Positions 5,492 to 64,000 of a stretch of 64,000 nucleotides of DNA are shown one piece after another (the stretch's first letter is position 1; each line of letters begins with the position of its first letter). This DNA is from a virus, in the IMG/VR virus record IMGVR_UViG_3300025603_000009, positions 1 through 64,000 of that record, one strand, 5' to 3'. The notes beneath the pieces are model-generated. The model did no database searches, had not been told where the DNA came from, and saw nothing but the letters and a program-made list of their open reading frames with translations. The position numbers were made by a program, and so were the translations under genes.

Positions 5492-5530
5492 GAAGCCATG
5501 ATTACTTATTGTAGTCATGGCTTCATTTTT
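5492..5530. terminator. terminator hairpin between the convergent gene blocks
   Basis: GAAGCCATGATTAC-TTATT-GTAGTCATGGCTTC followed by a T tract. Confidence 0.75.
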
Positions 5531-5618
5531 CCCCCTTTTATTTAACTTAATCAACAATTATACACCTATCATATCTAAAAACAGCTTCTAAAAAAAATTT
5601 ACGTCCGTAAGTGGATAA

Positions 5619-8600
5619 TTATTTGCGATAAACTCCTTGACCTGTACTATATAGTCTATATGCTTGTGTTCCAAGTGGCATTAATTGTAATGTTTCACGT
5701 AGTAATCTACTATCACCTGAATAAATACCCGTTGCAATAGTATCATCATTTTGTATAAATCTACCACCAGCAATAATAAACTCATATAAATCTGTAACTA
5801 ATGTACTTACAGGAATAAGATTTTTCATAAGTGCTTGTTGCTCTTGTGGATTTACATAAAATGTTATATCTGTTTGCATACGAGTTAACATATTTATTAA
5901 ATAGTTTGAATAAAGTTTTTGATCTTCATCATCATCATCTAATGACGCTTTAATTAAAACGTGAATTGCAATAAGTCCTGCATATATAACTAACTCTTGT
6001 AAATTAGCTCGCATATTAGCAGCATCTACTTCATTAAATCTATCATCAAATTTAGTATCTCTAAAAGTAGCTTTTCTAAATAATTGATTTAATGTAAATA
6101 CAACATTAGATATACCACTTGTTTCTATATTAGATACTTTAGGTGTAAAATATAAACTACTTATAGTTCTATATCTACCTTTACGAGTATATTCTAAGTG
6201 TGAATCATACTTTTCACTTTCAATACGTGAAGCCCAACCTTCAAACATCCAAGTTCTAAACTGTGCTAACGCTCTACCTAAAAACTTACGTTTAATAGCT
6301 AAAGGTGACAAGTGGTCATAATTACCATGATTCTTTTTAATAACTTGATCTAAGTTATTTTTAAATCTATTAGAAGATTTATTATGTGCATAATCAGCAG
6401 GATTACCACTCCATTCATTATTTTCAGCAAACTCTTGTGTATTCCAATTACCTTCATTATCATATGCTTCCCATAAAGTACGTTCTTCTCCATTAAGATC
6501 AGTAATTTTTTTGTTTAACATCATAGCAATCATTACAGGAGCTTGATTTAAATACTCACTACGCTTCTGTAAATTATATGCTTCTAAAAACTTTAATCTT
6601 GTATTTAATGTTGTTTCTTTAGAAGTTTTATAAAGTTCATTTGACGCATCTTTTAATACATCAAATTTATCCATAATCGCTCTAATTTTAAGAGCCAACA
6701 TTGCAACATTTGATTGATCAAATTTATCTAATTGGTGTGCAGTTAAATTTCTACCTATACTACTCCAAGTCATTCTATACGCTTTACGTAATTGACCTTG
6801 TGTATAATCTCTACCATCAGCAGCAGTAATTAAATTAGAAATATAACCAAATCCCATGTTAGCTACAGCAGAAAATGTATTCCAACCCATACCTTTAAGT
6901 TGCATCCACTGTAAAAGATTATCTCCTACACGTGAAGCAGCAATATATCCACCTACATTTTCTGCTTTAAGTTCTAATTCAGCCCTAAGTGATGTATATT
7001 CTTCATCTTCAATATCATTATTAACTTTTAATAATTCTAATTCTTTTAATAAATCTTCATACTTTTTCTTTTCAGCTTTTTCAATAGGCGTAAGAAATTT
7101 GATATTACTTACACCTTCTACTTCACGGGCGTACCCATAAAATACTTTAAAATAATTTTCGTAAGCAGTACGTAAATTTTTAAAACTATCAATTTCTGAC
7201 TTCTGTACAACGTTATCATACGGATCAGTAATTTTTTCATTTTTAGGAGTAAATCTACTTTCTCTTGATTCGTTAATAATGTTTCTAGCAATTTGAACAT
7301 AATCTTCAATAGCTGATTTGTGTTTATAACTTAACACTGCCATTGAATACGCTTTAATAACTTTACCTAAATCAAATGATTTAGTTTCTGCAACTTCATT
7401 AGTAGCTTTTCTACGTAAATTTTGAACATAAACTAAATCAGGTTCAGAATTAGTTTTAATACGAAATTCTAAAACACCTTTTTCAACTATTTGATCAATT
7501 GCACGTTTTTGATCGGGTAACATTTTTACTTCAAGTTGTGCATCAACTTCTCCTGTTATAGGGTCAATATCTCCATACATTGTATCTTTAATACTACCTT
7601 CTGTTGTACTAGCAATAAGTTTATCATATACAGAAGCTAACCCAGTTTTAAGTCCACCTTCATCAAACTGTTCTATTACAGCTTTTAAAATAGTTGGAAG
7701 TGTATTTACTTGTACGTTTTTACGACTATTGTAAGGTAAATATTTATGTAATGATGAAAAAGTATCAATCATAAATTCATAAAATTCACTTAATGTTTCA
7801 TCATTAGCAATAGTATCAAATCTTGAATCATTCCATATAGTAGCTTCACCAGTTTCTAAATTAGTTTTACGTGGTGTTTCATATGTAAAACGATGACCCA
7901 TAGGTTTAATAAAATTACCATCAATTTTAATACTTTTACCTTTATTAACAGCGTTACTATAATAATAAGGAGAATTTTCAATTTCCCATATTTTCATACG
8001 TTTCTGACGCTCTGACAAGCTACCAAATCCATTATCTACAATCTCACTGTACATGACGTCGAACTCTTCAAAGAACGTCGCCATACGTGCTTCCATACGC
8101 TTTGACAGAACGTTGTAGCGATATTCCCCCATATTGTTTTTTAACTCTGCAATATGTTTTGCTTTAGCTTTTTCATCAAATTTTCCAACATACGTTAATC
8201 TATCATCTGCAACAACAGGTGGAGCTAATAATCTAGCATCCATTAAAATTTCATTATTATGTTTCCAATCAAAATAATTATCCCACATAGCAGGATTATC
8301 AGATTCATTAGCACGATTAAATAATGCTTTTTTAGTCTCAAAAAATTCTTGTGTATAAGGATATATAATATTACCAGTTTTTTCACCCGTATTATATTTT
8401 TGCATAAACGGTTCATACAATGCTGTACCATTTGTTGTTTGTTGTATAGCTTTTAATTTTGCTTGAACTTCAGGAAGTAAACTATCTAGTTTAGCGTAAA
8501 TTTTATTTGCTTCATCAAATGCTCTTGAATTTGCATTTTTAACAGCATCAGATACTAAATCTAACATTACAAAACCGTATCTACTAATATCTAATACATT

Positions 8601-11600
8601 AGCAGATGCAACACTAATATCAGCTTTATTTGATAATTCTTCAGTAACGTCAGAATCAGGACTTCGTTCTCTTACAAAATCATTCATACTTTCAATATTC
8701 AATATAGAAAGTTTAGTATCAAATTGATTTATTTTTCCTTCAATTGAAGAAAACATATTAGAAATAGTTTCACTAAGTTTTTCTGCATCATTTAAGAAAA
8801 TTTCACTAGCATTTTTCCACAAGTGAATTAACTTTTTAGCATAAAGAAGATCACCAGTTGTCATATCATTACTAAAGATAACTTCTAATTCATCTATATC
8901 TTTTTTAGCAAAAATTGCAATTTCTTCAACAGTTAAAGCATCAGTTAATTCATCTATTTCTATATTTAAATCAGCAATTGTATCTTCTAATACATTTACA
9001 CGATAAAAATCTTTGTTATTATTTGCTGTAGCTATTTGTTGATACAACATTTTTTTACGTGAACGTAAATTTCCTATTAGTTTATTAAAACGATTAGAAT
9101 TTACATCAGTTGAATCTCCACTACTTAATGCAAAATCTGTAGTATCTTCTTCAACTACAATAACATAACCATAGCCATCTGCACGAGCAGTAGCTTTAAT
9201 ACCACTGTATTGCTTATTAATGTGACTAGCAATACCAGGGTCAGTTTTTAAAGTCCAACCACCTTTACGATTTTTAAGTTTAAATCTTTTTATAATATCC
9301 TGTACAGTGCTACGTTGTTTTGCGCCCGTGATAGAAAGATCACGATCTTTAAATTGATTAAGTAGTGTATTATATAATTTAGTATCAGAAGCATTTCCAA
9401 ATTCAACATATATTAAATTATCTTTAGCATTTTTTAACGCGGTTACAAATTCAGGATTTGTAGCGTGTAAATAAGTAAAAAATAATTTCATTGATTCTTT
9501 AAGTTGTACATTAGTAATATTACTATTACCTTTAAATGCTAAATAGGCTTCTTCTAAATTAGCATAATTATACATACCTAATGATATACCCCCACTATTT
9601 TTAGGATTTAATACAGAATCTTTAGTTACTTTGACAACATTTTTAGCGGGTTTACCAGTTTTTGTTTCAAGTAAAGATAACACATAAGTCATAGCTGCTT
9701 CAAGTTCGCTATTTTCATTAATGTTAGTACCTGTAAATAGTTGTGAAATGTATTCAACTATTTTTTTCCAAAAACTAATATCATCATTATAATTAGTTTC
9801 ATTTAACAGTGCTTGAAAATCTGGTGAAGTTAAAGCTAATGCAACGTATTCTTTAATATTATAACCAGCATAAATTACTTCAGCTTCTTCTTCAGTAATT
9901 ACAACGTCTTTCTTTTGTTTTAATCGTTCAATTTTTTGTACAAGTGCTTGCAATTTTTTACTATCTACTCTATTTCTAAAATTAATAAACAAACCATTAA
10001 TTTTAGCTACAAGTTGTATTTCTTCAGCCGTTTTAGGATTTATAAGTGTACTATTTAAAGCAGAGTGTACTAATTCGTGCAACATTACCTTCTCTAATTC
10101 AGCAGAATCTTGTAAAGCATCAGGATTAAACGTTAAAACTTTAGTTGCATTATTAAATTGTGCAGGATTACCTTTAGATAATCTTACATCTATTTGTAAT
10201 GCAGCTAATTCAAGTTTTGAACTATTTGCAAGAAGTGCTTCGGCTACTAATTTATTTCTTGAATTAGTAGATTTTTCTATAACCGTCTTTAAAAAATCTT
10301 TTGTTCTTTCAACAGCATTTTTTTTACTTATAAGACCATAACTTTCAGCAGTACTTTGTTTAAGTACATTTTTAACTTTTTTATTGTCAATAGGTGTTGT
10401 TTCTAATGTAGGATTATTAGCGGGTAATTCATAAGTAGTAGTTTTATTACCGACCATCATTGATTTTGCAACTTCTGCTCCAGCATCATATTCAGAATGA
10501 CCGTGTGCATCACCCAATCTATCAAGAATAACATACGTATTACCAACTCTAAGATAAGGATAAAACTTTTTATTTGTAGGATTTCTATATTTAATCATTG
10601 AAGGTACCGAGTTCATATCTAACCCTTCAATATAAATATTAAGACTATCATTATTTATTGTACCATCTTCATTTACTAAAGGGTCAATAAAATCTAATTC
10701 TTCTCCATTTTGCAATTCGTTAACATTATGTTGAAAATATTGCATAGCCATAAAACTAACTCTTTCTCTTACTCCTGTAGATAGTCCAAATAAAGAGGCG
10801 TTATTTAATGAAGCATTTTCAGTAAGTTGTTTTGCTATACCAGAACGAATAAGATATTGTGGTGGAATATATTTAACATATTGAACAGCACTTTGAACAC
10901 CACCATTTAAATACATTAACTGTATTAATGATTCCATTAATCGTGTTGTTGTCCACTCTTCACCATTGTACGTACCTATAACTTCATTAGAAGTTAATAA
11001 ATCAGCAACAGCACTATATATTGCAGTTTCATCTGAATTTTCAGCTGTACTTGCATACATCATAATATCAGCAGGTAACGAACTATTTTTACTTGGCGTA
11101 GCTTGTAATCTACTTAAAAAAGCATTTTGTCCAATAGGTTTATTTCTTAAATCTAATAATATTGAAGCAACAGACATATGAATATGTTCTGTATTTATAC
11201 CATCAAATGTATATTTATCATACATTAATTGTGAACGTGATTCAAATGCGTCATCAGTAATTGTATCAAGCGAAGTATATACAAAAGACTTCATAGCATT
11301 AAAAACTTTTATTCGTCTTTCAATGCTAGTATTTAAATTAAACTCTGCGCCAGCAAGTCTTTCAATTTCATCTACAACTCTACTTGGTACTGCATTTGTA
11401 TAAGGAAAGAATTTTGACCAAGATGCTACAGTTGTATTTAAAGCATAAACTGTAGCCATACCATTAATAGTACGTGGTCTTATATAGGTTGTAGCATTAA
11501 TTTTAACATAACCTAATTTTAAAAAAGTTTCTGAATCAAGATCTTGTCCTATAGGTACTTTTTTATAATCTCCAATAATAGCTTCAACATTCATAATGTT

Positions 11601-14600
11601 GGTACTATATGGAAGATTAGAAACACCGTCAAGTTTTGTTTGTGCGGCAATTAAAGAAGAACCTTTAGTTGATCTACCAATACTTACACTATCACTATTT
11701 ACTAATGCTTGTACTTTTCTTAAATCTCTACCTTGGTCTTCTAACATCATATTCTTTTTAAGAATAGCAAGTTGTGAAAAACGATAAGATTCTGATTCTT
11801 TATTTTCAGTAGCTAATAATTCAATAAGTTTAGTTCCTGAAACATCTGCATTTTCATCATATTTAGATGTATATTTATTACCACTATCATACTTTTCAAA
11901 AAGTGTAATATAAGCTAATTCTTTAGCTTTAACATAAGGCATTTCTTTACTTAACTTAGAAATTAATTTATGATATTCACTAATAATAGGTTGACTAATA
12001 AACGGTATAATTGTAGCTTCGTCAAATCCTTGACCTACTAATGTACGTATAGTATTAAAATTATCACCTACAACACTTAAAGGGTCCATTAGTAGATTAT
12101 TTTCATTATCTACTGAGATATTTTGAAAAGCCGAAAATACATCAATTTTTGTACGTACACCCTTATCATTAGTTTTTGGTTCATTTAAATTATTACTAAC
12201 TAAATCGCCAAATCTAATTTGTTGTACAACAGGTTTACCTGTTTCATCGGTAGTATAAAAATATACAGGAGATTCAGATTGTTGCAATGCAGCAAAATAT
12301 ACACTGTCCATACTAAAGCTACCAATACCATCTTTACCTTCACGTGCGCCTAAATAACGTTCTGTTTGATACTGTTCACTTAGTCCCGAAACAAAATCTT
12401 TTTCACCTTTTGCTTTAACTACAGCTTTATACAGTTCACCATCTTTACTCATAAGACCAAAACTTAATGGTCTTTTAATTCGCGCTTGAACTTCTTTATT
12501 AGAATTACTCATAACAGCAATATGAATATCCAAAAGCCTATTATGAAGATTTTTAATTTCTAATTTTCTACGAATAACTTTAGCATCTGCAGAATCAAAT
12601 TCTGTAGAACCTAAAATATCTCTAATTACTTGATCATTAAGAGCTTCAATTTCTTCTTTTGTATCGTAACTTACTGCACGTAAACTTTTACGAATTATTT
12701 TATCTGCAAATGTACCATCATTACGAACAAAATAATTGTTAGCTTTAGCAAATTCTTTACGACCTCTTGAGTCATCAAATTTGTCTATATTTTTACGAAT
12801 AATATCTCTTTTTGCCTTTGGAGAGTAATTATCAGTCGATATGAACTTTTGATATTCTTCTTCAATTTCATTAGGTTTTTTATTATTATTTGCGTATTCA
12901 GCTTCAACATATGTTGCACGTGACATAGCATATAAACTATCTACATCAAAATCTGAACCCATTCTAACAATAAAATCTCTAGGTGCAATAATAATATCTC
13001 CCATAGCTTCAGGAAGAAATCCTACAACTTCAATATAAGACATACTATTTTGAGCAGAAGTAGGAATACGATAACCAAACATATCTAATATTTCCGTAGG
13101 TAATTTAGATACATCAAGCATATTTCCAACCATAAAATCTGCAATATTTAATGTATTACCATAGTTATCTTTAAATTTAAACGGAACTAATACTTGATCA
13201 GGAGTTACTTTACCATCTTTATCATAAGAAGATGGTTGTAATCCTTTAGCAGCATCATAATTTTTTGTATAAATTATACCGTTTTTATCTTTATTAGTAA
13301 TTTCATCTTCAGTAAAAGTAGTTTTTTTCCAACCTTCTTGAGGTGCAAGAACATAAGAACTACCTGTTACAAGAATTTTTCTAATCTTATTTTCAACTAA
13401 TGAATTTAATAATGCTTCAAATTTAGAAGCAGAAGGAGAAAAGAAAATGGGAATTATAAAATTATTGTTATCAAGTTTTAACCCTTCAATTTCATTAATA
13501 TTATAGTTACGTTCTCGCGCTTCTTTTAAAATTATTTCATTAATTTTATTATTATTAACTGTACCATCTTCATTAAGAAGTTCATCTTTAAAATCTGCAT
13601 AATGAAGTTTATACAAATTATTATAAGTATCTAAAAATGTTTTGTTTAATTGCTTACCATTAATTTTTTTACCTTTATATGTAAAGTCTTGAACGTGTAG
13701 AATATCAGCAAACAATAATTTTCTTTGTTGAGAACCATCATTAATTACACCTTTTTCTTTAAATGGAACTTCATTTTGAATACCAAAATCTCTTCTATCA
13801 AGTTGTTTAGTATAAAGTGTAGAATCAATATCTTTTAAATCTTTAATACTACCATCTGAATTCCATATATTTAAAGGTTGTTCTAAATTACCTTGTTTAA
13901 TACCTGAACCATAAACACTTCTATCAATATCGTTAGCTTCCATAAACTCACGTAATTTATCAATATCGTGACCTTCTGTAAACTGTTTAAGTAAAGTTAT
14001 TTCTGCTAATTTAACATAAGTTTTAATATCAACATCAAATTCTTCAGATATTTCATTACCGTTAAAAACAGGTTTTTCAGCACCTAATACAATTTTTAAT
14101 TCTTTTTTAGAAAGTTTATCTCCTCTATCATGTTTTACAATTAATTCATTACCACGTTTTTGTGTAATAATACCTTTACCTACAAGGATTCTTACTTTTT
14201 CTTTTAGTGTAGTAACACCGTGTGCATCTGTAGTTTCAATTGCTTTATATTGTGCAGAATCTTTACCTAATATTTCTTCATAATGTGCAAGAATAGCAGA
14301 ATCCATTTTTAAATCCTGTAAATACAACATAGTAAATTGTTCATCTTTACTATTAGCTAATTCTTGTCTTGGCGCAGCTTCTCCAGCAAGACGTTTACTA
14401 ATATTTTCAAATGTATCTTTTATTTGTTGTTGAACACTGCTATTAGGATTACCTTTATACGATAAAGCAGGATCTCCTGCAAACATCATATACATATTTG
14501 CATTAGCAACAAGATAATTAATTTCCATGTCTGCGGCTGCTACACGTGCAGTATCAATATTAGCATCTTCTGCTACATCTGTAGCTTGTAAATTTAATGT

Positions 14601-16961
14601 AGCGGTGTAACGTGGATCTAAAAATTGAGATGCAACTTTACCACCATCAGTAATAATTTCAGCATCTTGCCACAATTTAATACGATTGTTTATTAAAGTA
14701 TTTACGTGTGTATTTAAAATTTTATAAAAAGTAGGTTTAAATTCTTCTAACAACACATCAGGAGAAACAGTTTTCTCACTCATTTTAATACTGTCATTAC
14801 CTATCTCAATATTGTTATCTTCAAGAAAAATTTCATACGCATCATTTAATTCAGGTATAAAATAAAATATGTTTGCACCTTCATTATAACCTTTAAGATT
14901 AACTTGTTTAACACGCTTTTGATGATTTATTGTACGTAATAATTCTGGAAGTACAAGAGTATCATACAACATATCTAAAGTAGGTTTACTTAACGATCCA
15001 GTAGATGTTAATGAAATAGGATAACGAGGTGCTGTAATTTGGTGTACAGTCTTTTTATCTGATGTATTTAAAAAATTATAAATGACATAATCTTTTCCTT
15101 GATTTTGAAACATATGTAATTTATACTTTAGTAAATCATCAGAACTTAATCGTTCAATAGGAATTGGACGACCATCTGTATCTCTATAAGTATCTGCATA
15201 AGTGATTTTTAATTTATCTTTTAAAACAGAATCATCTTTAGCTAATTCTCGTAGCCATTGTGAACCCGAATTAAAAGACAATTTTAATAACCCTTCAACC
15301 AAATTTGGTTCTGTTTTTAGACGGTTTAAACGGTTAATCATGTGTTTATTGTTGCTGTAAAACCATCTAGTTTTACCTTCACCATCTCTACCAGAATTAG
15401 AATATAAGTTATTACTAAAACGAACAGTGTGTTTTGCTAATGAAACAACAGCAGTATCAGAAAATAAGTCATTTTGTGTTAATGATGTTTTACCACGATT
15501 TCTAAAGTTTTTAGCAATTTGATCAAAAACATTATTTTTACCTAATAGTGTATCAAAACTAACTAAATCTCCTTGATAATAAATACCGTAATCAATTAAA
15601 GATTTAACAGCAGCGTCTGACATATCCATACCTACACTAGACAACCAACTTTGTACCATTTCAATTGTAGGTGTAGTTTTTTGTAATACATCAAAAGCAT
15701 CTAATATATCTTTAACTTGTTGTGTGTCTGTATTAACAAATACATCTACATCGCTACCTGATTCATCTGATTGTACAAAATCTTTTGCAATGTAATTACT
15801 ACGCCATTGTTTAAGTATACGCTTTTCTGCACTTGCACTATTTACATCACCCACATTTAATTGAATTGTACCATCTTCTCTAACAACACGTCGAGCATAA
15901 TTCATTTCAACGTAATGTTTAATCATATTATACTGAATAGCATTTTGTATAGAACTATCTGCTTCTTCAATACGCTCTGCAACTTGAGATAAAAATGGTT
16001 TATCATTTGCTGCATCATCTAAACGTGCAATTAATGAATCTATATCAGTATCACTACCAGCTAAAATTTCAATAACACTATCGTATACTTGATCAAATGG
16101 TACACGTTCTTTAAGTGCTAAGAAATTTGCTTTAGGTTTTTGATCTGCTTTTACATCTATAATATTAGCAAAAAATCTACGTAATTGTGTACTAGCTCCA
16201 GATTTAGGGTCTATAGATAAACTTCTTTTATCATTATAATTATTATTAGCAACACCTCCTGAAGTTTCTAAATCTTCGTCATATGTATTATCGTCAGACA
16301 AAACAAAACCTTGTTGATTTTCAATACGATTTGTAGCATAAGTTGTAAAACTTTCCCAATCATCTAATACTCTTTGAATATTATTAGCAACTACATTAGA
16401 TATTTTAGTGTCTTTTGCTCTAAGTTCCCTTTGATGTTTTTCAAGATTGGTTCTTGCAACTTTATACGCCTTTGATAGAGTGATAGGATTACTATCTTCT
16501 GCTTCATTTTGTTCTAATAATTGCCCTTGTACTGAACCTACAATTACATTAATAACAGATTCAGCTTGTGTAGGAGTAAATCCATCAATAATATATTTGG
16601 AACCAAAATCATCTTTTAATTCTGAAATAGCAGAAGCACTTAAAGCCATATCTTCTACACTACGAACGTGTTCAAGTAAAACTTCCAATTTAGGTTCTTC
16701 ATCTAGTCTACCATTCTCCTGTTCAAAGGCGGGTGTATACATATAAGCCTTATACCTAAAAGCTAAAGCGCGATCATTATCTACGTCATCTAATTTAAGT
16801 ATTTTATTAAAAAGTGGAGAACTAACACCTTCGCTAGTTTTGTCAATATTATGACCTTTATTAGCAACCCACAATAAATCAGCGGTATTTGTATTACCAT
16901 TAAAAGCGTTTAATAATTCTTTATATTCAGAATTATTACGGTTTGGACAAAATGTACTCAT
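5619..16961 (-). CDS. virion-packaged DNA-dependent RNA polymerase polyprotein (two-barrel RNAP, zincin, C-terminal cargo region)
   Basis: GYRIPT...MGSDFDVDSLY catalytic motif (12939-12953); LHELVH zincin motif (10065-10079); size and position after the cargo genes as in crAss-like phages. Confidence 0.9.
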   Translation of the reverse strand: MSTFCPNRNNSEYKELLNAFNGNTNTADLLWVANKGHNIDKTSEGVSSPLFNKILKLDDVDNDRALAFRYKAYMYTPAFEQENGRLDEEPKLEVLLEHVRSVEDMALSASAISELKDDFGSKYIIDGFTPTQAESVINVIVGSVQGQLLEQNEAEDSNPITLSKAYKVARTNLEKHQRELRAKDTKISNVVANNIQRVLDDWESFTTYATNRIENQQGFVLSDDNTYDEDLETSGGVANNNYNDKRSLSIDPKSGASTQLRRFFANIIDVKADQKPKANFLALKERVPFDQVYDSVIEILAGSDTDIDSLIARLDDAANDKPFLSQVAERIEEADSSIQNAIQYNMIKHYVEMNYARRVVREDGTIQLNVGDVNSASAEKRILKQWRSNYIAKDFVQSDESGSDVDVFVNTDTQQVKDILDAFDVLQKTTPTIEMVQSWLSSVGMDMSDAAVKSLIDYGIYYQGDLVSFDTLLGKNNVFDQIAKNFRNRGKTSLTQNDLFSDTAVVSLAKHTVRFSNNLYSNSGRDGEGKTRWFYSNNKHMINRLNRLKTEPNLVEGLLKLSFNSGSQWLRELAKDDSVLKDKLKITYADTYRDTDGRPIPIERLSSDDLLKYKLHMFQNQGKDYVIYNFLNTSDKKTVHQITAPRYPISLTSTGSLSKPTLDMLYDTLVLPELLRTINHQKRVKQVNLKGYNEGANIFYFIPELNDAYEIFLEDNNIEIGNDSIKMSEKTVSPDVLLEEFKPTFYKILNTHVNTLINNRIKLWQDAEIITDGGKVASQFLDPRYTATLNLQATDVAEDANIDTARVAAADMEINYLVANANMYMMFAGDPALSYKGNPNSSVQQQIKDTFENISKRLAGEAAPRQELANSKDEQFTMLYLQDLKMDSAILAHYEEILGKDSAQYKAIETTDAHGVTTLKEKVRILVGKGIITQKRGNELIVKHDRGDKLSKKELKIVLGAEKPVFNGNEISEEFDVDIKTYVKLAEITLLKQFTEGHDIDKLREFMEANDIDRSVYGSGIKQGNLEQPLNIWNSDGSIKDLKDIDSTLYTKQLDRRDFGIQNEVPFKEKGVINDGSQQRKLLFADILHVQDFTYKGKKINGKQLNKTFLDTYNNLYKLHYADFKDELLNEDGTVNNNKINEIILKEARERNYNINEIEGLKLDNNNFIIPIFFSPSASKFEALLNSLVENKIRKILVTGSSYVLAPQEGWKKTTFTEDEITNKDKNGIIYTKNYDAAKGLQPSSYDKDGKVTPDQVLVPFKFKDNYGNTLNIADFMVGNMLDVSKLPTEILDMFGYRIPTSAQNSMSYIEVVGFLPEAMGDIIIAPRDFIVRMGSDFDVDSLYAMSRATYVEAEYANNNKKPNEIEEEYQKFISTDNYSPKAKRDIIRKNIDKFDDSRGRKEFAKANNYFVRNDGTFADKIIRKSLRAVSYDTKEEIEALNDQVIRDILGSTEFDSADAKVIRRKLEIKNLHNRLLDIHIAVMSNSNKEVQARIKRPLSFGLMSKDGELYKAVVKAKGEKDFVSGLSEQYQTERYLGAREGKDGIGSFSMDSVYFAALQQSESPVYFYTTDETGKPVVQQIRFGDLVSNNLNEPKTNDKGVRTKIDVFSAFQNISVDNENNLLMDPLSVVGDNFNTIRTLVGQGFDEATIIPFISQPIISEYHKLISKLSKEMPYVKAKELAYITLFEKYDSGNKYTSKYDENADVSGTKLIELLATENKESESYRFSQLAILKKNMMLEDQGRDLRKVQALVNSDSVSIGRSTKGSSLIAAQTKLDGVSNLPYSTNIMNVEAIIGDYKKVPIGQDLDSETFLKLGYVKINATTYIRPRTINGMATVYALNTTVASWSKFFPYTNAVPSRVVDEIERLAGAEFNLNTSIERRIKVFNAMKSFVYTSLDTITDDAFESRSQLMYDKYTFDGINTEHIHMSVASILLDLRNKPIGQNAFLSRLQATPSKNSSLPADIMMYASTAENSDETAIYSAVADLLTSNEVIGTYNGEEWTTTRLMESLIQLMYLNGGVQSAVQYVKYIPPQYLIRSGIAKQLTENASLNNASLFGLSTGVRERVSFMAMQYFQHNVNELQNGEELDFIDPLVNEDGTINNDSLNIYIEGLDMNSVPSMIKYRNPTNKKFYPYLRVGNTYVILDRLGDAHGHSEYDAGAEVAKSMMVGNKTTTYELPANNPTLETTPIDNKKVKNVLKQSTAESYGLISKKNAVERTKDFLKTVIEKSTNSRNKLVAEALLANSSKLELAALQIDVRLSKGNPAQFNNATKVLTFNPDALQDSAELEKVMLHELVHSALNSTLINPKTAEEIQLVAKINGLFINFRNRVDSKKLQALVQKIERLKQKKDVVITEEEAEVIYAGYNIKEYVALALTSPDFQALLNETNYNDDISFWKKIVEYISQLFTGTNINENSELEAAMTYVLSLLETKTGKPAKNVVKVTKDSVLNPKNSGGISLGMYNYANLEEAYLAFKGNSNITNVQLKESMKLFFTYLHATNPEFVTALKNAKDNLIYVEFGNASDTKLYNTLLNQFKDRDLSITGAKQRSTVQDIIKRFKLKNRKGGWTLKTDPGIASHINKQYSGIKATARADGYGYVIVVEEDTTDFALSSGDSTDVNSNRFNKLIGNLRSRKKMLYQQIATANNNKDFYRVNVLEDTIADLNIEIDELTDALTVEEIAIFAKKDIDELEVIFSNDMTTGDLLYAKKLIHLWKNASEIFLNDAEKLSETISNMFSSIEGKINQFDTKLSILNIESMNDFVRERSPDSDVTEELSNKADISVASANVLDISRYGFVMLDLVSDAVKNANSRAFDEANKIYAKLDSLLPEVQAKLKAIQQTTNGTALYEPFMQKYNTGEKTGNIIYPYTQEFFETKKALFNRANESDNPAMWDNYFDWKHNNEILMDARLLAPPVVADDRLTYVGKFDEKAKAKHIAELKNNMGEYRYNVLSKRMEARMATFFEEFDVMYSEIVDNGFGSLSERQKRMKIWEIENSPYYYSNAVNKGKSIKIDGNFIKPMGHRFTYETPRKTNLETGEATIWNDSRFDTIANDETLSEFYEFMIDTFSSLHKYLPYNSRKNVQVNTLPTILKAVIEQFDEGGLKTGLASVYDKLIASTTEGSIKDTMYGDIDPITGEVDAQLEVKMLPDQKRAIDQIVEKGVLEFRIKTNSEPDLVYVQNLRRKATNEVAETKSFDLGKVIKAYSMAVLSYKHKSAIEDYVQIARNIINESRESRFTPKNEKITDPYDNVVQKSEIDSFKNLRTAYENYFKVFYGYAREVEGVSNIKFLTPIEKAEKKKYEDLLKELELLKVNNDIEDEEYTSLRAELELKAENVGGYIAASRVGDNLLQWMQLKGMGWNTFSAVANMGFGYISNLITAADGRDYTQGQLRKAYRMTWSSIGRNLTAHQLDKFDQSNVAMLALKIRAIMDKFDVLKDASNELYKTSKETTLNTRLKFLEAYNLQKRSEYLNQAPVMIAMMLNKKITDLNGEERTLWEAYDNEGNWNTQEFAENNEWSGNPADYAHNKSSNRFKNNLDQVIKKNHGNYDHLSPLAIKRKFLGRALAQFRTWMFEGWASRIESEKYDSHLEYTRKGRYRTISSLYFTPKVSNIETSGISNVVFTLNQLFRKATFRDTKFDDRFNEVDAANMRANLQELVIYAGLIAIHVLIKASLDDDDEDQKLYSNYLINMLTRMQTDITFYVNPQEQQALMKNLIPVSTLVTDLYEFIIAGGRFIQNDDTIATGIYSGDSRLLRETLQLMPLGTQAYRLYSTGQGVYRK

Positions 16962-39162: not shown

Positions 39163-40739
39163 TCTTTACATGGGTCAGTACAACAATAATTTTGTAATCC
39201 ACTAATTATACAAGCTAAATCTAAAATTTTGTTTAGAGTTACTGAATCAATATTTTGAAGTGCTTGTGAAAATATTTCATTGTCGTGCATAGTTAACAGA
39301 AAATAACCAGCACCACTTATAGCTAATGAACCTATATCATACATAGAATCACAACCAGAACAACCATCAGAACAGCCACAATCTCCTTGACCTATTGTTA
39401 TAGTTTTAGCTAAAAGACATTTTTGAAAATTACAATCTGCAACAAAATAATAATATTTAATAACTTCACCATTTGTCCATTTAATACGGTATACACCATC
39501 AGTTGGAGCAGTAAAAATAACAGTATCGTTAATATCATTAACAGTGTCAACAAGAACTTCAGCTATATTATTACTACTTAAATGTTGTTCTACTTTCCAT
39601 GTTGCACCATCTAAAGCATAATTTGTAATATTAAATGTATTACATTCACTACGTGTAATATTAAAGTTAGGGCAGATAACAATTGTTTTTGATGTTTGAC
39701 ATTTCATCATTGTTTGACCACTAAGTTTAAAATAAATTTCAGCTAAAACAACTACAGTACCATATTCAGTAGGCTCATAATTAAACAGTGTATTAGCATC
39801 ATTCCAAGCCCCAGGAGTACACGCTATATCTTCCATATCTTGAACTAATAACACTTCTCCAAAAGGCGAATAGATAGTATATACTACTTGAATAGCAGTA
39901 AACAAATATGCAGGAAGTGAAATACCTTCACCAGCATTAGTAATACGAACTTTCATTACTTTATCAAAATCCATAACCATACGGATTTTTAAATTTTCTC
40001 CAACTATTGCCCCACAATTTTCACTACAATTTGCACAAATTGAAAGAATACTTAATTCAGGAACTTGTGTTTCTTCAGGTACAGCAATATCAAGAATACA
40101 AGGTGTAGTTACTAAAGCGTTATTATCTTGTACGCTAAATTCGTAATTAGACTCACCTTTATCACATATAAGAAATTGATCACCATTTGTTTCAACAGCG
40201 TCAACATCAATTAATTTTTTATTCGCAGCTCCAGTAGAAGACGAGTTACAAATACGTAAATTATTTGTAAATGGTATACGGTATTTAACTACAGAAGCAT
40301 ACGCTTCAACAGAACTATTACCTTCAATATAAGGTGATTCAACTAATACAAGTTCAAATACAGGATGTTCTGCATGATTGTTAGCATCTTTACCTAAGTC
40401 ATAACCAGATATAGTAAATGTTTTTTCATAACTTACAACACCTAATTGTATCATTTCAATTTTAAATGTATGTTCATTTTGTAGTACCCAATTAGGTAAA
40501 ACAACCTGACAATAACCATTAACAAAACTGTGTACAAAAGCAGCAACAGTTGATATAGGGTCTGTTACAGCGGCAGTAGGAAAAGTGTCAGTATCGACAT
40601 CATCATTATTATAGATGACAGTATTATTTAATGTCATTCTACAAAAAAGATCCTGTATTGATACAGCATTAATAGTGCCTCCGCATAAATCGGAGGCACT
40701 ATCTTCAGCTGTTCTTTTAATACTAATATTTAAAACCAT
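39156..40739 (-). CDS. putative tail hub protein with Ig-like domains and a Cys-rich C-terminus
   Basis: FTAPTDGVYRI, CGCSDGCSGC and CCTDPCKDC; follows the auxiliary capsid gene. Confidence 0.55.
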   Translation of the reverse strand: MVLNISIKRTAEDSASDLCGGTINAVSIQDLFCRMTLNNTVIYNNDDVDTDTFPTAAVTDPISTVAAFVHSFVNGYCQVVLPNWVLQNEHTFKIEMIQLGVVSYEKTFTISGYDLGKDANNHAEHPVFELVLVESPYIEGNSSVEAYASVVKYRIPFTNNLRICNSSSTGAANKKLIDVDAVETNGDQFLICDKGESNYEFSVQDNNALVTTPCILDIAVPEETQVPELSILSICANCSENCGAIVGENLKIRMVMDFDKVMKVRITNAGEGISLPAYLFTAIQVVYTIYSPFGEVLLVQDMEDIACTPGAWNDANTLFNYEPTEYGTVVVLAEIYFKLSGQTMMKCQTSKTIVICPNFNITRSECNTFNITNYALDGATWKVEQHLSSNNIAEVLVDTVNDINDTVIFTAPTDGVYRIKWTNGEVIKYYYFVADCNFQKCLLAKTITIGQGDCGCSDGCSGCDSMYDIGSLAISGAGYFLLTMHDNEIFSQALQNIDSVTLNKILDLACIISGLQNYCCTDPCKDC

Positions 40740-41761: not shown

Positions 41762-42844
41762 TTAAGAGTTAAATACATTTTCTTGAACAAACGCTTCATA
41801 ACCACTACCTTTTTTTAAAGCAATGATTTTTTGAGCGACATTTTCAACTATCTTTCTAGATACATTTGTAGATAACTCAGGGTTCAAACCTAAAGATAAC
41901 GAAATAGGCATCGGTTTCCTAATATAATCTATCGTAGCTTCTCTAACTACGAAATCAGGTGTGTGATGAACACTAAGTTGATTAATATTTAAATTAGACA
42001 CGGGTGAAGACCAAATTGTTTTTGTAAGACTAAATTTAAGTGTACCTCTTATATCATTTATTTCAGTTAATCTATTAAGAGATTCTAATTTTTTTTCAGT
42101 AATAGTATCTTTATATTGAGACAATATAAGCGATCTACTAGCTGTAGTAACTATTTCTTGATCATCACCAGTACCAGAAGTAGCACTAAATGAACCTTGA
42201 TCGGGACCAATTATAATAAAAGTATTAGGATAATGTGTACCCCTCCAATATTCCCAATGCGCTTCATAACCATCTAATAAATTTATATCGTTAAGAATTA
42301 AATCTATTAATACAAATTTTTGTTTATTATCTCCAAAGCCTCCACTTAAATTAGTATAATTATCAATTGAAAATAAAATATCTTGTGATTCACCTTGTGG
42401 AGTATATGCGAGGGTATAACCATCAAATTTAGCAACATTATCTTCAAACACTAAAGAAGAATAATGTAGTTCAACATTATTTCTATTAGTGGCAACGTTT
42501 AATGTACTACCACATTTATACTGAAGATCACTAGATATATCTTCTAACAAGTGTAAATAATTAGAGGGTAGCTGACCAGCCACCCTCTTATCATTTATAT
42601 AGTATAAACTAATTGGATAATCTAATACGTACAAAGTCTGTAAATCATCTAATCTTTTTTGAGAACTATCTATAGTAGTTTTATCAGGCGTATTAGCAGG
42701 TGCAAGACGTTGACGAATAAAATCTAATTGACCTTGTGTAAAAAACCAATCTTTTTCTTCAGGTCTTATATTACCTACAGATTTAGACATTACCTCTTGA
42801 ATTTTAAGGTCTAAATCAACGTGCATTTCAAAAACAGTATACAT
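41762..42844 (-). CDS. head-tail ring protein
   Basis: EMH...PEEKDWFF...QKRLDDLQTL...IDYIRKP motifs. Confidence 0.75.
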   Translation of the reverse strand: MYTVFEMHVDLDLKIQEVMSKSVGNIRPEEKDWFFTQGQLDFIRQRLAPANTPDKTTIDSSQKRLDDLQTLYVLDYPISLYYINDKRVAGQLPSNYLHLLEDISSDLQYKCGSTLNVATNRNNVELHYSSLVFEDNVAKFDGYTLAYTPQGESQDILFSIDNYTNLSGGFGDNKQKFVLIDLILNDINLLDGYEAHWEYWRGTHYPNTFIIIGPDQGSFSATSGTGDDQEIVTTASRSLILSQYKDTITEKKLESLNRLTEINDIRGTLKFSLTKTIWSSPVSNLNINQLSVHHTPDFVVREATIDYIRKPMPISLSLGLNPELSTNVSRKIVENVAQKIIALKKGSGYEAFVQENVFNS

Positions 42845-55964: not shown

Positions 55965-56283
55965 AGTATTCTCTAAATATATTTAAATGATGCTTTCTTA
56001 AATATGTAATGTGAGTATTATGTTTAATATTATAATCAATTTCATCAGGAGTTAATTTATTCTCCATTAATTCCTTATACTTATAAATTAAATAACCATC
56101 ACTATTAAATTGGAATCTTCCCAACTTAGCTAAATCAACAGACTCTTTACATTTTAAACATTTAGCAACTTCATTATAATATTTAATTAAAGTAGCTTTA
56201 ATTACAACAGTAGATACGTCAACATCATGTTCACGTTTCACATCTCTATTTATTGCATTAAGTATATCTACTTCATTATTCAT
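55957..56283 (-). CDS. HU/IHF-like DNA-binding protein
   Basis: ESVDLAKLGRFQ motif; first gene of the late block. Confidence 0.55.
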   Translation of the reverse strand: MNNEVDILNAINRDVKREHDVDVSTVVIKATLIKYYNEVAKCLKCKESVDLAKLGRFQFNSDGYLIYKYKELMENKLTPDEIDYNIKHNTHITYLRKHHLNIFREYYG

Positions 56284-56287
56284 ACTA

Positions 56288-56336
56288 TAAATATACGATT
56301 TATATTTGCTAATTACAAATATTATATGTATCTTAA
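56288..56336. promoter_or_regulatory. overlapping divergent Bacteroidota-type promoters
   Basis: Minus TTTG-N20-TATATTTA and plus TTTG-N20-TATCTTAA around the palindrome ATATTTG-CTAATTA-CAAATAT. Confidence 0.55.
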
Positions 56337-56357
56337 AGTAGATAAAATCTCAATGTT

Positions 56358-56657
56358 ATGGAGAATTTTGATCATATTGTAGAACAAATTAGTTATAATA
56401 CTAATTGGATAAAAACACTTATAGTTCCTAAAGATGAACTAATAAACTTTCATGCTGTATTTTATAATTTTAATATAAATATAGTAGCATCTAGTAGACT
56501 TACTAATATGAATCAATTTGCACCTATTATAATGTCTGCTAAAACTATAATTAAAGAAGATGTTGATTTTGCCGCTACTCGCGCTTTATTAACTACTGCA
56601 TATCATAGTCAAATGTCTGAAGGTAATCTTTTATATAAACAAGTTTTATTTAATTAA
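56358..56657 (+). CDS. hypothetical protein
   Basis: 99-aa ORF downstream of the plus-strand promoter candidate. Confidence 0.55.
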   Translation: MENFDHIVEQISYNTNWIKTLIVPKDELINFHAVFYNFNINIVASSRLTNMNQFAPIIMSAKTIIKEDVDFAATRALLTTAYHSQMSEGNLLYKQVLFN

Positions 56658-56754
56658 AAATACTAGTTTCATAGCTGGTGATTTGTGTTTTAAGTTGTCT
56701 AAGTTAGAGGGGGAAGTAGTGACTCCCCCTTATACTTAACTCACTACTATGAAT

Positions 56755-56797
56755 TATGAGTATCTCATATATGAGGGTATATGAGGGTATATGAGTG
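56755..56797. repeat. 10-bp phased TATATGAGGG repeats with an inverted copy of the core
   Basis: TATGAG-TAT-CTCATA, then TATATGAGGG x2 and TATATGAGTG. Confidence 0.85.
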
Positions 56798-56809
56798 GTT
56801 TTGGTTAAC

Positions 56810-56848
56810 AAGAAAAGATGGTGGAAACGTTCACCATCTTTTTCTTTT
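56810..56848. terminator. bidirectional terminator
   Basis: AAGAAAAGATGGTGGA-AACG-TTCACCATCTTTTTCTTTT. Confidence 0.8.
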
Positions 56849-57047
56849 ACATACTTATTCAAAGGCGCAACTAAATAATAATGTAATATAAATTAGGTAT
56901 TTTAATAAATATAACTTAACTTGTATATCTAGTTTAAAGAGTATGTCCGTACTCTATAAGTGCTGTCTAACACGAATACTATTAAACGTAGTAGTATTTT
57001 GTTTACTATTTATTATGTGGTTTTGTCATGATTTTTCCACATACATG

Positions 57048-57086
57048 AAAAAGGTTATAAAGTTTAATACTTTGTAGCCTTTTTTT
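57048..57086 (+). terminator. intrinsic terminator
   Basis: AAAAAGGTTATAAAGT-TTAAT-ACTTTGTAGCC-T7; the G-U pairs favour the + strand. Confidence 0.7.
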
Positions 57087-57338
57087 GTGTCTTATATATT
57101 TATATAAATACTAATATGGATGGGACTTAAAAAAATTATATAAATTATATTATAAATGTTGTTAGTTCGCTTTATGTTTGTAGTCGCATTGTTTGTATAC
57201 CCCCGTATGTACATATGATTACTAAGTGTACTACCCACCTTGATTCAACCCCCCTTACTTATTTTTGACATGAAAGTACCCGTGGGTATTCGAGCGTCAT
57301 CACTATTTATTCACATTATCTTAATACACACAAATCTT

Positions 57339-57944
57339 ATGAATACTTTTACCATTACTAACGTGCGTCTGTTACCTCAGATTGGAACTAACGCGCCTGC
57401 TATGATTATTGATGTTGCTAACCATACTACTGGTATTTACCGTAGTGAGAAGGTGGCACTGATTGACCTTCGTGATGCAGGCATCACTGCTACTAGATTA
57501 GCTGACGTTGAACTCGTTGAACTACGTGAACGCTTCATTGGCGGTAGAGTTAGTGGAGACATTATCTTCCACAATGCTGGTAGCACATACATTGCTGATG
57601 CAAACTCTACTGCTGTCGTTAGCGGTGCTGTCGAAGTTGGTGCTACACTCAAACGTAAGGCTGACCAATTTCGTGTTGAACGCTTTCTTACCATCTCCCG
57701 TAGTGATAACGCGATGCTGCGTTCTGCTATTGCAAAGGAAGCTGGTCAGGCAATGGCACAGCTATGCGGAGGGTTTGTTCCTTCTGCTAACGTTGGTGCT
57801 AGTGCGCAACCAGCATTAGAGGTTGGCGGTAATCATCCTGATGAAGATGATACTGTTGATGGTGACGCTGAAGAAGCTACTGAAGAAGCTACTGAAGAAG
57901 CTACTGCTCCTGTTGGACGTAGAAGCCGTCGCAAGACAGCATAA
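57339..57944 (+). CDS. first early-region protein, function unknown
   Basis: Likely ATG at 57339 after an A/C-rich leader; visibly GC-richer with GCT/CGT/GGT codons; acidic EEAT repeats and a basic tail. Confidence 0.8.
   Translation: MNTFTITNVRLLPQIGTNAPAMIIDVANHTTGIYRSEKVALIDLRDAGITATRLADVELVELRERFIGGRVSGDIIFHNAGSTYIADANSTAVVSGAVEVGATLKRKADQFRVERFLTISRSDNAMLRSAIAKEAGQAMAQLCGGFVPSANVGASAQPALEVGGNHPDEDDTVDGDAEEATEEATEEATAPVGRRSRRKTA
57870..57905 (+). repeat. 12-bp tandem repeat x3 (EEAT)
   Basis: GAAGAAGCTACT three times. Confidence 0.95.
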
Positions 57945-57946
57945 TA

Positions 57947-58018
57947 TGCGAAACGACGATAGTAGCGATACTATCGTCGTCTATCACACGTGATGGTGTG
58001 GTACTGATGAGCAGTCAC
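57947..58018 (+). ncRNA. type II hammerhead ribozyme
   Basis: TGC-GAAA-stem III (GCGA loop)-GTC-stem I-CTGATGA-GCA with every core nucleotide present, plus a loop I pseudoknot to GTCAC. Confidence 0.92.
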
Positions 58019-58158
58019 TAATGTACGCATACGTAGTTATTACGTGTGTGTACGTAAGCATAGTCTAATCATACTTACAGCGCGAACACTGTAATGTCTC
58101 AGACTTGTCTCTTTATTAATGTCTTAGAATTAACAACACAAATAATACCACAGAAATT

Positions 58159-58530
58159 ATGATTAAGTTTTCTAAAGTGATTAGAACTATACTACTATCA
58201 ATAGTATTAATAATATTATTCATACAATTGTATGGTGATGTATTCAGTACTACTATGCCAGTATTACTTATGGCTCAATTGATGGCTTGTATTGGTATTG
58301 CATTCATATTCTTTACAGATCATAACGAATATGATGATTGGACTCAAGTAAAACCTAAAGACTGTGATGAATCTCGTAGATATTGCAATGATATAAAATG
58401 TATTAGTGGCAATACTACATTTCTTGGTAGTAGATATGATTCCAGTGATGCAGTTGTATACAAGTATAGGTGTTATGATTGCAATACTACATATGAAATT
58501 GCAGAAGTACGTTTAAGAAAGAGGTTGTAG
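58159..58530 (+). CDS. membrane protein with two TM helices and a C-terminal Zn-ribbon-like motif
   Basis: Two hydrophobic segments; CNDIKC...CYDC. Confidence 0.65.
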   Translation: MIKFSKVIRTILLSIVLIILFIQLYGDVFSTTMPVLLMAQLMACIGIAFIFFTDHNEYDDWTQVKPKDCDESRRYCNDIKCISGNTTFLGSRYDSSDAVVYKYRCYDCNTTYEIAEVRLRKRL

Positions 58531-59139
58531 ATTAACAATGATAGTAGTATTTGCATGATTAATGATATTGTGCAGATACTACTTGATTTAATACTTATAA
58601 TAATACTAGTATCTTAGCATTGACATTGATCGAAAGAAAACGAATGTGTTAGTGTATATTCATACCATACTAATTAGTATATGTCAATATTTAGTGTATA
58701 TTATATATAAGGTATAGATACATTGACAAGTCTACGTACACATACAATACTATATTCAATAGTATTTGCATACACACAATCCCTAATTATAAGTTTATAC
58801 TATACTTGTACACATAATATAGTGACATATACTCACTGTATTTATGCAATTACTCAAGATAAGCGTATAACTAACAGTATTAGAGTAGCTATTTGCATTA
58901 ATAATAATAATGTATTAATACTATTCACACTATTTATTACTACTTCAGATACTTGAACTAATGATAGTATCAGAGTTTATTATGTATTAACTTTCACAAG
59001 CGTTTCCTTATAACTTTGGAATGTTAGTCTTACTCTTATGCTTTAGTCGGCAATAACATTTATTACAATTAGAAGAAATACCTAGTGTATAGAACAGCAC
59101 ACTAATTGTAGTATTTGTATCATCATAAAAATTAGCATT

Positions 59140-59346
59140 ATGAAACTTAGTATGAAAAGATATACTGTAACTATTAATTTCATTTTTAATAAGACAGGTA
59201 ATGTAAAGAGTATTGTTGAGAATGTAAAAACATTAAAAGAAGCATTGTCTTATAAAGATATACTTGATGAAACTGTATCTACAGCACGTATTAAAAATAA
59301 TGTTACAGGTAGAATTAAATGGTTAATACCTCACACAATTAAATAA
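59140..59346 (+). CDS. hypothetical early protein
   Basis: 68-aa ORF with an A-rich leader. Confidence 0.65.
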   Translation: MKLSMKRYTVTINFIFNKTGNVKSIVENVKTLKEALSYKDILDETVSTARIKNNVTGRIKWLIPHTIK

Positions 59347-59952: not shown

Positions 59953-60034
59953 AAAATGTCTCTTTTATGGGCGAGGTTAATAATCCACTTTTAAATAAGC
60001 ATTATTAATAGTGGTTCAAGTCCACTGCATTTTT
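59953..60034 (+). ncRNA. tRNA-like RNA 1 (non-canonical)
   Basis: 7-bp acceptor-like stem AAAATGT/GCATTTT abutting a canonical T-arm AGTGG-TTCAAGT-CCACT. Confidence 0.6.
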
Positions 60035-60040
60035 TATAGT

Positions 60041-60148
60041 AACTTTCATCCAATTGCGGGTGATTAACCATATCAGATAAACATTGTTATTGCTCAATCT
60101 AGTTATAGAGCCTTTGTTTCTTGTCAAGGTGCAACCTTGTGAGAGTTA
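60041..60148 (+). ncRNA. tRNA-like RNA 2 (non-canonical)
   Basis: 8-bp closing stem AACTTTCA/TGAGAGTT abutting CAAGG-TGCAA-CCTTG. Confidence 0.45.
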
Positions 60149-60187
60149 TTATTTATTTAAGTATTTATAATCATTAAAGAAAAAGAA

Positions 60188-60937: not shown

Positions 60938-61446
60938 AACCAAGAACAGAACTTTCAATAAACGTATTTTTAAAAGCATTAGAAACAGACACTATTGTAA
61001 AAGGTACGTGTTCAGCTTGTGCAGTAGGTAATATGATAGCAGCAGCAAATTCTGTACGTGTACGTAAACATCCAACACAACAATTTGGTAAGGATATGTT
61101 AAATTACGTAACAGACAACTTTATACCAAACTGGGTACGAGTGTTTGTAACAACACACAAGGGTGTACAACGATATTATCCAGAAAAATTAACAGGTGCA
61201 ATAGAAAAAATGTTACTTAAAACAAATTTTACTATTGACGAATTAAGAATAATTGAACACACATTTGAAACAACTGCTAAACATCATTATCTATCTTATC
61301 CTACATTACATCCAAACATTGTACGTCAAGATATACTCAATGGTTTAATTGCTGTAGTAGAAGAAATGTTATTATTTGACAAATCTACAAAAGATGTTAA
61401 AGATGTATTTACATCTAAAGCTCTATTAATTCCAGTTAATTCTTAA
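60934..61446 (+). CDS. hypothetical protein with a CxxCAVGN motif
   Basis: KGTCSACAVGNMIA. Confidence 0.75.
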   Translation: MKPRTELSINVFLKALETDTIVKGTCSACAVGNMIAAANSVRVRKHPTQQFGKDMLNYVTDNFIPNWVRVFVTTHKGVQRYYPEKLTGAIEKMLLKTNFTIDELRIIEHTFETTAKHHYLSYPTLHPNIVRQDILNGLIAVVEEMLLFDKSTKDVKDVFTSKALLIPVNS

Positions 61447-63429: not shown

Positions 63430-63656
63430 TGGCTATTATATTGTTACCTACAACACACGAAAAAATGATGTGTTTGATAAAGGATTTTAAGCACACAAAA
63501 AAACTTCTTATTATAAATGTAAGTGCAGCTAATTATTTTAGAAAAGCATTTATAAATGCAATGGTAGATGGTGATTCACAAACTGTTAAATTGTTATATA
63601 TTGAATATTGTGATCGCAAACACAATGTTAATTATATTAAAACATTGTTAAATTAA
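63429..63656 (+). CDS. hypothetical protein
   Basis: 75-aa ORF translationally coupled to the upstream gene. Confidence 0.6.
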   Translation: MAIILLPTTHEKMMCLIKDFKHTKKLLIINVSAANYFRKAFINAMVDGDSQTVKLLYIEYCDRKHNVNYIKTLLN

Positions 63657-63687
63657 CAATAAAATAAATACTGAATTACTATAAATT

Positions 63688-63939: not shown

Positions 63940-64000
63940 TACCAATAATAATCTATATACTTACTATAAACAACACAAATAAAATAGTTGGTATTGTAAA

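Follow-up and report, generated by a model that had tools for sequence, protein, structure and literature searches.

A predicted type II hammerhead ribozyme directly behind a stop codon in the genome of a crAss-like phage

Natural type II hammerhead ribozymes are abundant in bacteria and occur around single genes in prophages, where loop I-tail pseudoknots of at least 4 base pairs (bp) are typical of the type (Perreault et al. 2011, PMC3088659), and the role suggested for the prophage examples is to cut long phage transcripts into gene-length mRNAs (PMC3088659; PMC6765202). Three type II hammerheads were found to be active in Desulfovibrio vulgaris by cyPhyRNA-seq (PMC8782182), and hatchet ribozymes are described as largely confined to Crassvirales (10.64898/2026.03.07.710320). 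Here we describe a predicted type II hammerhead on the plus strand of a 64,000-nucleotide (nt) window, which is the whole stretch of DNA that was analysed (positions 1 to 64,000 of the IMG/VR virus contig IMGVR_UViG_3300025603_000009; 82,585 bp, 100% complete according to CheckV). The ribozyme begins 2 nt past the TAA (57942-44) of a gene for a protein of 201 amino acids (aa), with its core nucleotide G12 at a distance of 5, and is found in sense orientation within the gap that separates two open reading frames (ORFs) of the same strand, with no opposite-strand ORF of at least 50 aa over it. Compared with the bacterial and prophage type II hammerheads, it has the same core, the same topology (closed stems I and III with an open, short stem II) and the same kind of pseudoknot between loop I and the 3' tail (RF02276, PMC3088659), and it occupies the same place, between phage genes, on the sense strand and directly behind a stop codon (PMC3088659). 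It differs from them in being single rather than clustered, in having a stem III at the top of the length range, and in residing in a crAss-like genome with a virion polymerase. For phages both the motif and its placement are ordinary, and hammerheads of type II behind phage genes had been described by Perreault et al. 2011; the fresh points are only the crAss-like setting and, around one conserved gene, an apparently optional ribozyme that switches type.

The plus-strand segment 57946-58020 matched the Rfam family Hammerhead_II (RF02276) at 53.3 bits, well over its gathering score of 37 (E 3.7e-8, calculated for the 64-kb window, both strands and all 4227 families), with all model columns from 1 to 66 aligned end to end, and the outcome of this Infernal check, which the initial annotation had proposed, confirms its observation of a complete type II hammerhead. 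At the permissive threshold of E <= 1 this was the sole Rfam match in the window, and the whole record contains no other Hammerhead_II match. In the standard hammerhead nomenclature the core comprises CUGANGA, GAA, an A15.1-U16.1 pair and a non-G at position 17; here we found CUGAUGA (58004-10), GAA (57950-52), the pair A57953-U57980 and C57981, surrounded by three helices of which stems I and III end in loops while stem II is open, which is the type II topology. Each of the elements that had been listed at first reading was located in the sequence (Table 1), including the putative pseudoknot, in which a tail beginning directly after stem II could, judging by complementarity only, form five pairs with loop I (four Watson-Crick and one G-U). 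Stem II reads from the sequence as C57949-G58011, G57948-C58012 and U57947-A58013; the RF02276 alignment as printed brackets U57947/G57948 and G58011/C58012 for stem II, one column off this pairing register.

Folding was consistent with the model alignment. RNAfold recovered stems III and I from the 75 nt alone (-29.1 kcal/mol, z -3.48, none of 200 shuffles as stable) and recovered them again within 266 nt of context. Furthermore, a descriptor of our own, written for all three hammerhead topologies, produced loose hits in shuffled crAss-like sequence at a rate of approximately 2.5 per Mb (2 in 0.93 Mb and 8 in 3.1 Mb), and none of the 8 hits of the 3.1-Mb shuffle was compact and strong, meaning summed stems of at least 14 and a length of at most 90 nt. 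No second copy of the 17-nt cleavage-site sequence, as would be expected of trans-cleavage targets, was found within 3 mismatches in the window. Among deposited phages, the search for relatives of the ribozyme returned nothing beyond matches of 31 nt to Pseudomonas phages (E 0.3), which we attribute to the shared core plus chance, and blastn of 56300-59000 gave no match.

A scan of IMG/VR with a consensus pattern requiring GCGAAAC and CTGATGAGC returned at least 120 stretches, of which 80 loci were examined (L134-L213), and among the matches listed the descriptor verified 102 strong type II hammerheads in these 80 loci, a sample that leans to the consensus subclass and comes mostly from G+C-rich loci (median 0.61). 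In 52% of the 102 a same-strand ORF of at least 60 aa ended no more than 10 nt before G12, whereas the figure for 5100 positions drawn at random from these loci was 3.5%; the present ribozyme, close against the upstream stop codon, is thus placed as viral type II hammerheads usually are. Potential loop-tail pairing of at least 4 bp was present in 60 of the 102, and their stems III spanned 3-12 bp; the 12 bp of the present ribozyme are the maximum, shared with two others, and a stem III equal to the longest in the sample fits a role as a protective 3' hairpin. Hammerhead arrays also occur among the matches listed, with 11 pattern matches in L209 (8 printed positions over approximately 3 kb) and 5 in L157.

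On the sequence evidence, we hold with moderate confidence that this is a cis-acting type II hammerhead in the rightward mRNA of a crAss-like phage, which would cut the message between two genes. The 201-aa gene is preceded by two terminator-like hairpins and none is called after it, which would place the ribozyme within a transcription unit, after the first of its genes and before the second. The initial annotation had put it directly after the first early gene, and the immediate proximity stands; the gene itself is the second ORF of the rightward block, behind a 99-aa ORF and the two terminator-like hairpins, and its label as early is inferred from gene order. The ribozyme would be transcribed as part of the rightward mRNA and would become competent to cut only after synthesis of CUGAUGA, the 3' strand of stem II and the pseudoknot tail; as this catalytic strand is transcribed last, cutting would follow completion of the 73-nt motif. 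After self-cleavage between C57981 and U57982 the products would be joined by the 3-bp stem II only, which suggests a fast release. The upstream product would be a single-gene message for the 201-aa protein with a 37-nt 3' untranslated end, terminating in the 12-bp GCGA-capped hairpin plus one nucleotide and a 2',3'-cyclic phosphate, whereas the downstream RNA would have its 5'-OH at the very foot of the 8-bp stem I hairpin and carry the 15-bp hairpin and the following genes. Both predicted products fold with terminal hairpins.

In hammerhead chemistry the upstream product receives a 2',3'-cyclic phosphate and the downstream product a 5'-OH, and in bacterial RNA decay in general, hairpin, cyclic-phosphate and 5'-OH ends slow exonucleases and 5'-end-dependent nucleases. 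Both the hairpin-protected upstream end and the two types of terminus that had been proposed at the outset would thus be obtained, provided that cleavage occurs. The likely effect would be that stability and translation of the first gene become independent of the remainder of the terminator-less transcript, an outcome for which no host nuclease would be needed. As in an intrinsic terminator, the upstream RNA would end in a stable hairpin; unlike in an intrinsic terminator, the U-tract is absent, as had correctly been noted, and the site was not called by the terminator scan, which gave no terminator-like site on the plus strand in 57559-59200. Reading of the sequence likewise revealed no U-richness after stem III or after the 15-bp hairpin. 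Moreover, a ribozyme would cut the RNA without releasing the polymerase, leaving the downstream genes transcribable, and the further claim that the element stands in for a terminator is not shown by the sequence: self-cleavage makes an RNA end without stopping the polymerase. A functional parallel exists with the glmS ribozyme and with twister ribozymes tested in 3' untranslated region reporter constructs, where self-cleavage within an mRNA alters the fate of the message (PMC6765202), although these belong to other ribozyme classes, and ligand dependence is neither known nor suggested for the present one.

Table 1 Features of the ribozyme and its surroundings, and ribozymes at the four loci carrying the gene family.
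Feature	Position	Strand	Basis
Predicted type II hammerhead ribozyme, entire Rfam match	57946..58020	+	RF02276 53.3 bits; own descriptor type II, stems I/II/III 8/3/12
Stem II, 5' strand UGC, 3 bp with GCA 58011-58013, open stem	57947..57949	+	Sequence; descriptor stem II = 3
Core G12-A13-A14	57950..57952	+	Sequence; aligned to model GAA
Stem III hairpin, 12 bp, A15.1-U16.1 at base (A57953-U57980), GCGA tetraloop	57953..57980	+	Sequence, RNAfold
Predicted cleavage, C17 (57981) / U1.1 (57982)	57981..57982	+	GUC position in model alignment
Stem I hairpin, 57982-89 with 57996-58003, 8 bp including one G-U, 6-nt loop GUGAUG	57982..58003	+	Sequence, RNAfold
Core C3-U4-G5-A6-U7-G8-A9 (CUGAUGA)	58004..58010	+	Sequence, model alignment
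Stem II, 3' strand GCA	58011..58013	+	Sequence
Putative pseudoknot tail GUCAC, complementary to loop I GUGAU 57990-57994	58014..58018	+	Sequence complementarity
Weak 4-bp mini-hairpin GCAU-AAU-AUGC, holds stop codon, competes for UGC strand of stem II	57939..57949	+	Minimum free energy folds; its shortness makes chance possible
Upstream gene, 201 aa from ATG 57339, TAA 57942-44	57339..57944	+	ORF; acidic EEAT x3 tail ending in basic residues
15-bp hairpin, several G-U pairs forming on + strand only, without U-tract	58021..58055	+	Folding
Downstream gene, 123 aa, two N-terminal hydrophobic segments	58159..58530	+	ORF list
First rightward ORF, 99 aa	56358..56657	+	ORF list
Terminator-like hairpin with T-run, upstream of transcription unit	56812..56843	+	Terminator scan
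Second terminator-like hairpin with T-run, upstream of 201-aa gene	57047..57085	+	Terminator scan
3780-aa virion protein with RNA polymerase module	5619..16961	-	PDB 6VR4 'DNA-dependent RNA polymerase' E 2.7e-25, residues 738-1705; phrog_16227
G000 (present phage): stop codon, then type II hammerhead, then hairpin			
G001: type I hammerhead, stems 8/4/9, full core, ends ~40 nt before start codon of homologous gene	L002 2776-2839	-	
G005: ribozyme near family gene, none found			Rfam E <= 10; no descriptor hit beside gene
L133: ribozyme near family gene, none found			Rfam E <= 10; core motifs checked by eye

The 201-aa gene has relatives, and their surroundings allow the junction to be compared. 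Among 12 IMG/VR contigs with a related terminase (32-42% identity) the family gene was present in G001 and G005; together with L133 as a fourth locus and the present phage (G000), this gave four loci. In all four, the gene is followed by a strong hairpin and then by the gene of a two-transmembrane protein (two N-terminal hydrophobic segments), which argues that a defined RNA structure at the junction is conserved, and the 58021-58055 hairpin of the present phage is the probable counterpart of the post-gene hairpin in the relatives. The type I hammerhead of G001 scored below the Rfam cut-offs, with 16.9 bits against 34 for Hammerhead_1 and 24.7 bits against 56.3 for the RAGATH-1 hammerhead. With a ribozyme present at only some of the four loci and a constant junction at all of them, the ribozyme appears to be optional at a junction that is itself conserved. 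A conserved gene that has its ribozyme downstream, upstream or not at all, depending on the locus, also constitutes a natural comparison set for the effects of ribozymes on the message.

Several observations weigh against the proposed cutting of the message between the two genes. The same-locus survey of Crassvirales and relatives, which the initial annotation had suggested, turned up a ribozyme at two of the four family-gene loci only, the second being of type I and in front of the gene; in G005 and L133 none was found, which suggests that the ribozyme is dispensable for the family gene in relatives. None of the 12 relatives selected by large terminase subunit (TerL) had a Hammerhead_II match over the cut-off. 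For stem covariation, the copies offered no variation, with no differences over the ribozyme in the contigs X13, X14 and X19 (the contigs from four DNA runs are short, of low depth and identical to the window, and three of the runs cover the ribozyme) and no diverged copy found in the 12 relatives. The public runs listed for the whole or a part of 57100-58700 number 24; all are DNA and bear the label salt lake metagenome. A promoter might lie between the ribozyme and the next gene; the sigma-70-type promoter scan is uninformative here, with 17 sites versus 18.4 expected. Finally, the roles of bacterial self-cleaving ribozymes are described in a review as largely elusive (PMC6765202).

The patchy distribution, with type II behind the gene here, type I ahead of it in G001 and none found in G005 and L133, is also what would be expected of an active ribozyme without an important role, i.e. 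a sporadically gained, near-neutral insertion coming and going at gene junctions. Such an insertion would be in line with the lack of Hammerhead_II over the cut-off in the 12 relatives and of types I, II and III over their Rfam cut-offs in all 14 reference genomes (13 Crassvirales and Fpv20), as well as with the post-gene hairpin of the relatives, which is still kept here, downstream of the ribozyme. We consider it unlikely, since the motif is flawless, including the pseudoknot and the unusually long stem III, where decay would be expected under neutrality, and since the strong enrichment of viral type II hammerheads just after stop codons argues for a selected position.

The closeness to the stop codon could alternatively point to a translation-linked switch, in which cleavage depends on ribosomes reading the upstream gene. 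The mini-hairpin around the stop codon, which appears in the minimum free energy folds and rivals a strand of stem II, would fit such a switch, as would the fact that the ribozyme abuts the stop codon like half of the 102 viral type II hammerheads; but a hairpin of four base pairs and a 3-nt loop is weak and may readily form by chance, and the closeness is equally well explained by compact gene packing plus 3'-end formation. We consider a switch of this kind quite improbable. Similarly slim are the chances that the purpose is not the shaping of the mRNA and lies instead in the release of a discrete structured RNA from 57982 to approximately 58110, which would take in stem I, the 15-bp hairpin and additional stems. 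This hairpin does lie in the 140 nt that follow the ribozyme, its G-U pairs form on the plus strand only, a G+C content of 45% persists to approximately 58100, and in phi14:2 long early intergenic regions are reported to be highly transcribed as non-coding RNAs (10.1101/2020.03.07.982082). On the other side, this segment has no Rfam match at E <= 1, 58019-58165 folds with a modest z (-2.34) and the opposite strand gives a similar value (-2.08), a 3' boundary is not evident, and the relatives hold a single hairpin only at the same place. A chance match without ribozyme activity is highly improbable, for although the 24 listed runs are all DNA and the copies of the ribozyme that were found are identical, the E-value, the presence of all core bases, three stems and the pseudoknot, and the lack of compact and strong hits in shuffled sequence speak against it.

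Returning to a cis-acting ribozyme that cuts the rightward message, early genes of phi14:2 are reported to be transcribed by the virion polymerase, with a common early promoter motif not found (10.1101/2020.03.07.982082), and the present phage encodes a homologue of this polymerase, which might read the rightward unit, as the initial annotation had presumed. A broader proposal, which we offer as a possible but doubtful extension, would be that ribozymes serve in crAss-like phages as a host-independent way of setting mRNA ends, that a slot by one conserved early gene is filled interchangeably, in the present phage by a type II hammerhead behind it, in G001 by a type I hammerhead ahead of it and in G005 and L133 by just a hairpin, and that the placement of viral type II hammerheads against stop codons would reflect a coupling of cleavage to the end of translation.

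Hammerheads were also detected elsewhere in crAss-like phages. The descriptor scan of whole records covered 8 of the 12 TerL relatives (539,755 bases; G004, G007, G008 and G010 were covered via loci spanning the whole record) and gave 7 hits. G012 carries a type III hammerhead at 20948-21004 (L040 1148-1204 (-)), with 52.6 bits for RF00008 against a cut-off of 48.5, on the sense strand and approximately 50 nt after an 80-aa ORF. A type III match in G009 at 61275-61333 (L036 1875-1933 (-)) remained below the same cut-off with 37.1 bits (E 2e-4), and a compact type I descriptor hit with stems 6/7/3 at G012 18680-18737 was not reported by Rfam at E <= 5. Near its hammerhead region, G012 (L039 11838-15311 (-)) also contains four tRNA genes and a sub-threshold permuted tmRNA match (40 bits versus 47).

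For the reference genomes, the descriptor scan covered 11 of the 14 (1.05 Mb; all but W09, W11, W12 and the last 648 bases of W01). The only compact and strong hit was a canonical, unannotated type I hammerhead in cr272_1 (NC_055903.1) at 5502-5578 (-) (L073 ~1489-1565; stems 6/5/4), located 10 nt after the hypothetical gene gp67 and just before a terminator-like hairpin, with 20.9 bits against a cut-off of 34. Weak descriptor hits at G000 2901-3002, G005 2537-2640, G009 39989-40036 and G011 42235-42311, and eight in the references, were rejected as chance, their rate being that of the shuffles. The hammerheads of G001, G012 and cr272_1 resemble the present one in being sense-strand cores beside small genes, and differ from it in topological type and gene junction, with both type I examples below the Rfam cut-offs, which thus miss two well-formed type I hammerheads (G001, cr272_1). 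Overall, the sequence matches show that all three hammerhead topologies occur sporadically in the crAss-like group. Our literature searches gave no report of a hammerhead in crAss-like phages, although the supplementary alignments of PMC3088659 may already contain some; the present element adds a clean, testable hammerhead to crAss-like phages with a virion RNA polymerase.

The 201-aa protein is a member of a family that lacks annotation and shares a conserved N-terminal domain; we located the family at 57339-57944 of the window, L002:2166-2744(-), L006:5098-5718(-) and L133:831-1433. An exhaustive HMMER search returned 32 remote homologues at E <= 0.001, five of them at E <= 1e-10, compared with one protein (98% identical) in a word-indexed search, and the ten homologues that were looked up (P0002-P0011) come from Logan or ENA. 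Family members have 137-248 aa and a common core with GD, AG..Y and EGFL motifs, followed by a tail that is acidic and then basic. The protein had no match in Pfam, PHROG or PDB sequences, no usable ESM Atlas hit, and no tblastn match against 50,697 phage records. A degenerate DGxRVEGFL pattern found 9 loci in viral contigs, none of them with a family member; in metagenome contigs the search with alignment A3 gave no relatives, single-protein scans returned only the contigs of the queries themselves, and the scan with alignment A4 gave one relative, L133.

The 201-aa gene is also the most G+C-rich ORF of the genome (0.467 versus a median of 0.30), with 0.63, 0.49 and 0.29 at the first, second and third codon positions, respectively, and the homologous genes of G001 and G005 likewise lie above the mean G+C of their own genomes. 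As the first two codon positions carry most of the excess and the homologues in the two relatives show a raised G+C too, we read it as the amino-acid composition of the family rather than a recent transfer, and a horizontally acquired cassette of gene plus ribozyme, as a G+C island might suggest, was rejected on the same grounds.

Concerning the genome as a whole, terminase, portal and major head protein were named by PHROG families, and the giant virion protein (Table 1) contains a polymerase module matching 6VR4, the solved virion RNA polymerase of phi14:2; on these four the phage is crAss-like, an assignment from gene content rather than a formal, tree-based placement in the order Crassvirales. 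Its TerL is 25-37% identical to those of Crassvirales in the rows listed and 31-32% identical to those of Flavobacterium Fipvunavirus phages. Leftward genes stop at 56283 and rightward ORFs start from 56358. Ahead of the ribozyme-bearing gene lies a gene-free stretch of 680 nt (56658-57338), which includes both terminator-like hairpins, a G-rich hairpin (~56710-56730) and three tandem TATGAG(G/T)GGT-like units (~56768-56800). Further downstream, tRNA-like folds at 59953-60152 corresponded to no tRNA by ARAGORN in the window and to no Rfam match at E <= 1. A 21-nt A-rich motif, AATTAACAACACAAATAATAC, at 58128-58148 recurs in two 81% copies at 63651-63671 and 63965-63985; a rightward start codon follows 11 nt after the first copy and another 17 nt after the second, the third copy is found at the window end, and the motif may be a shared leader or promoter element.

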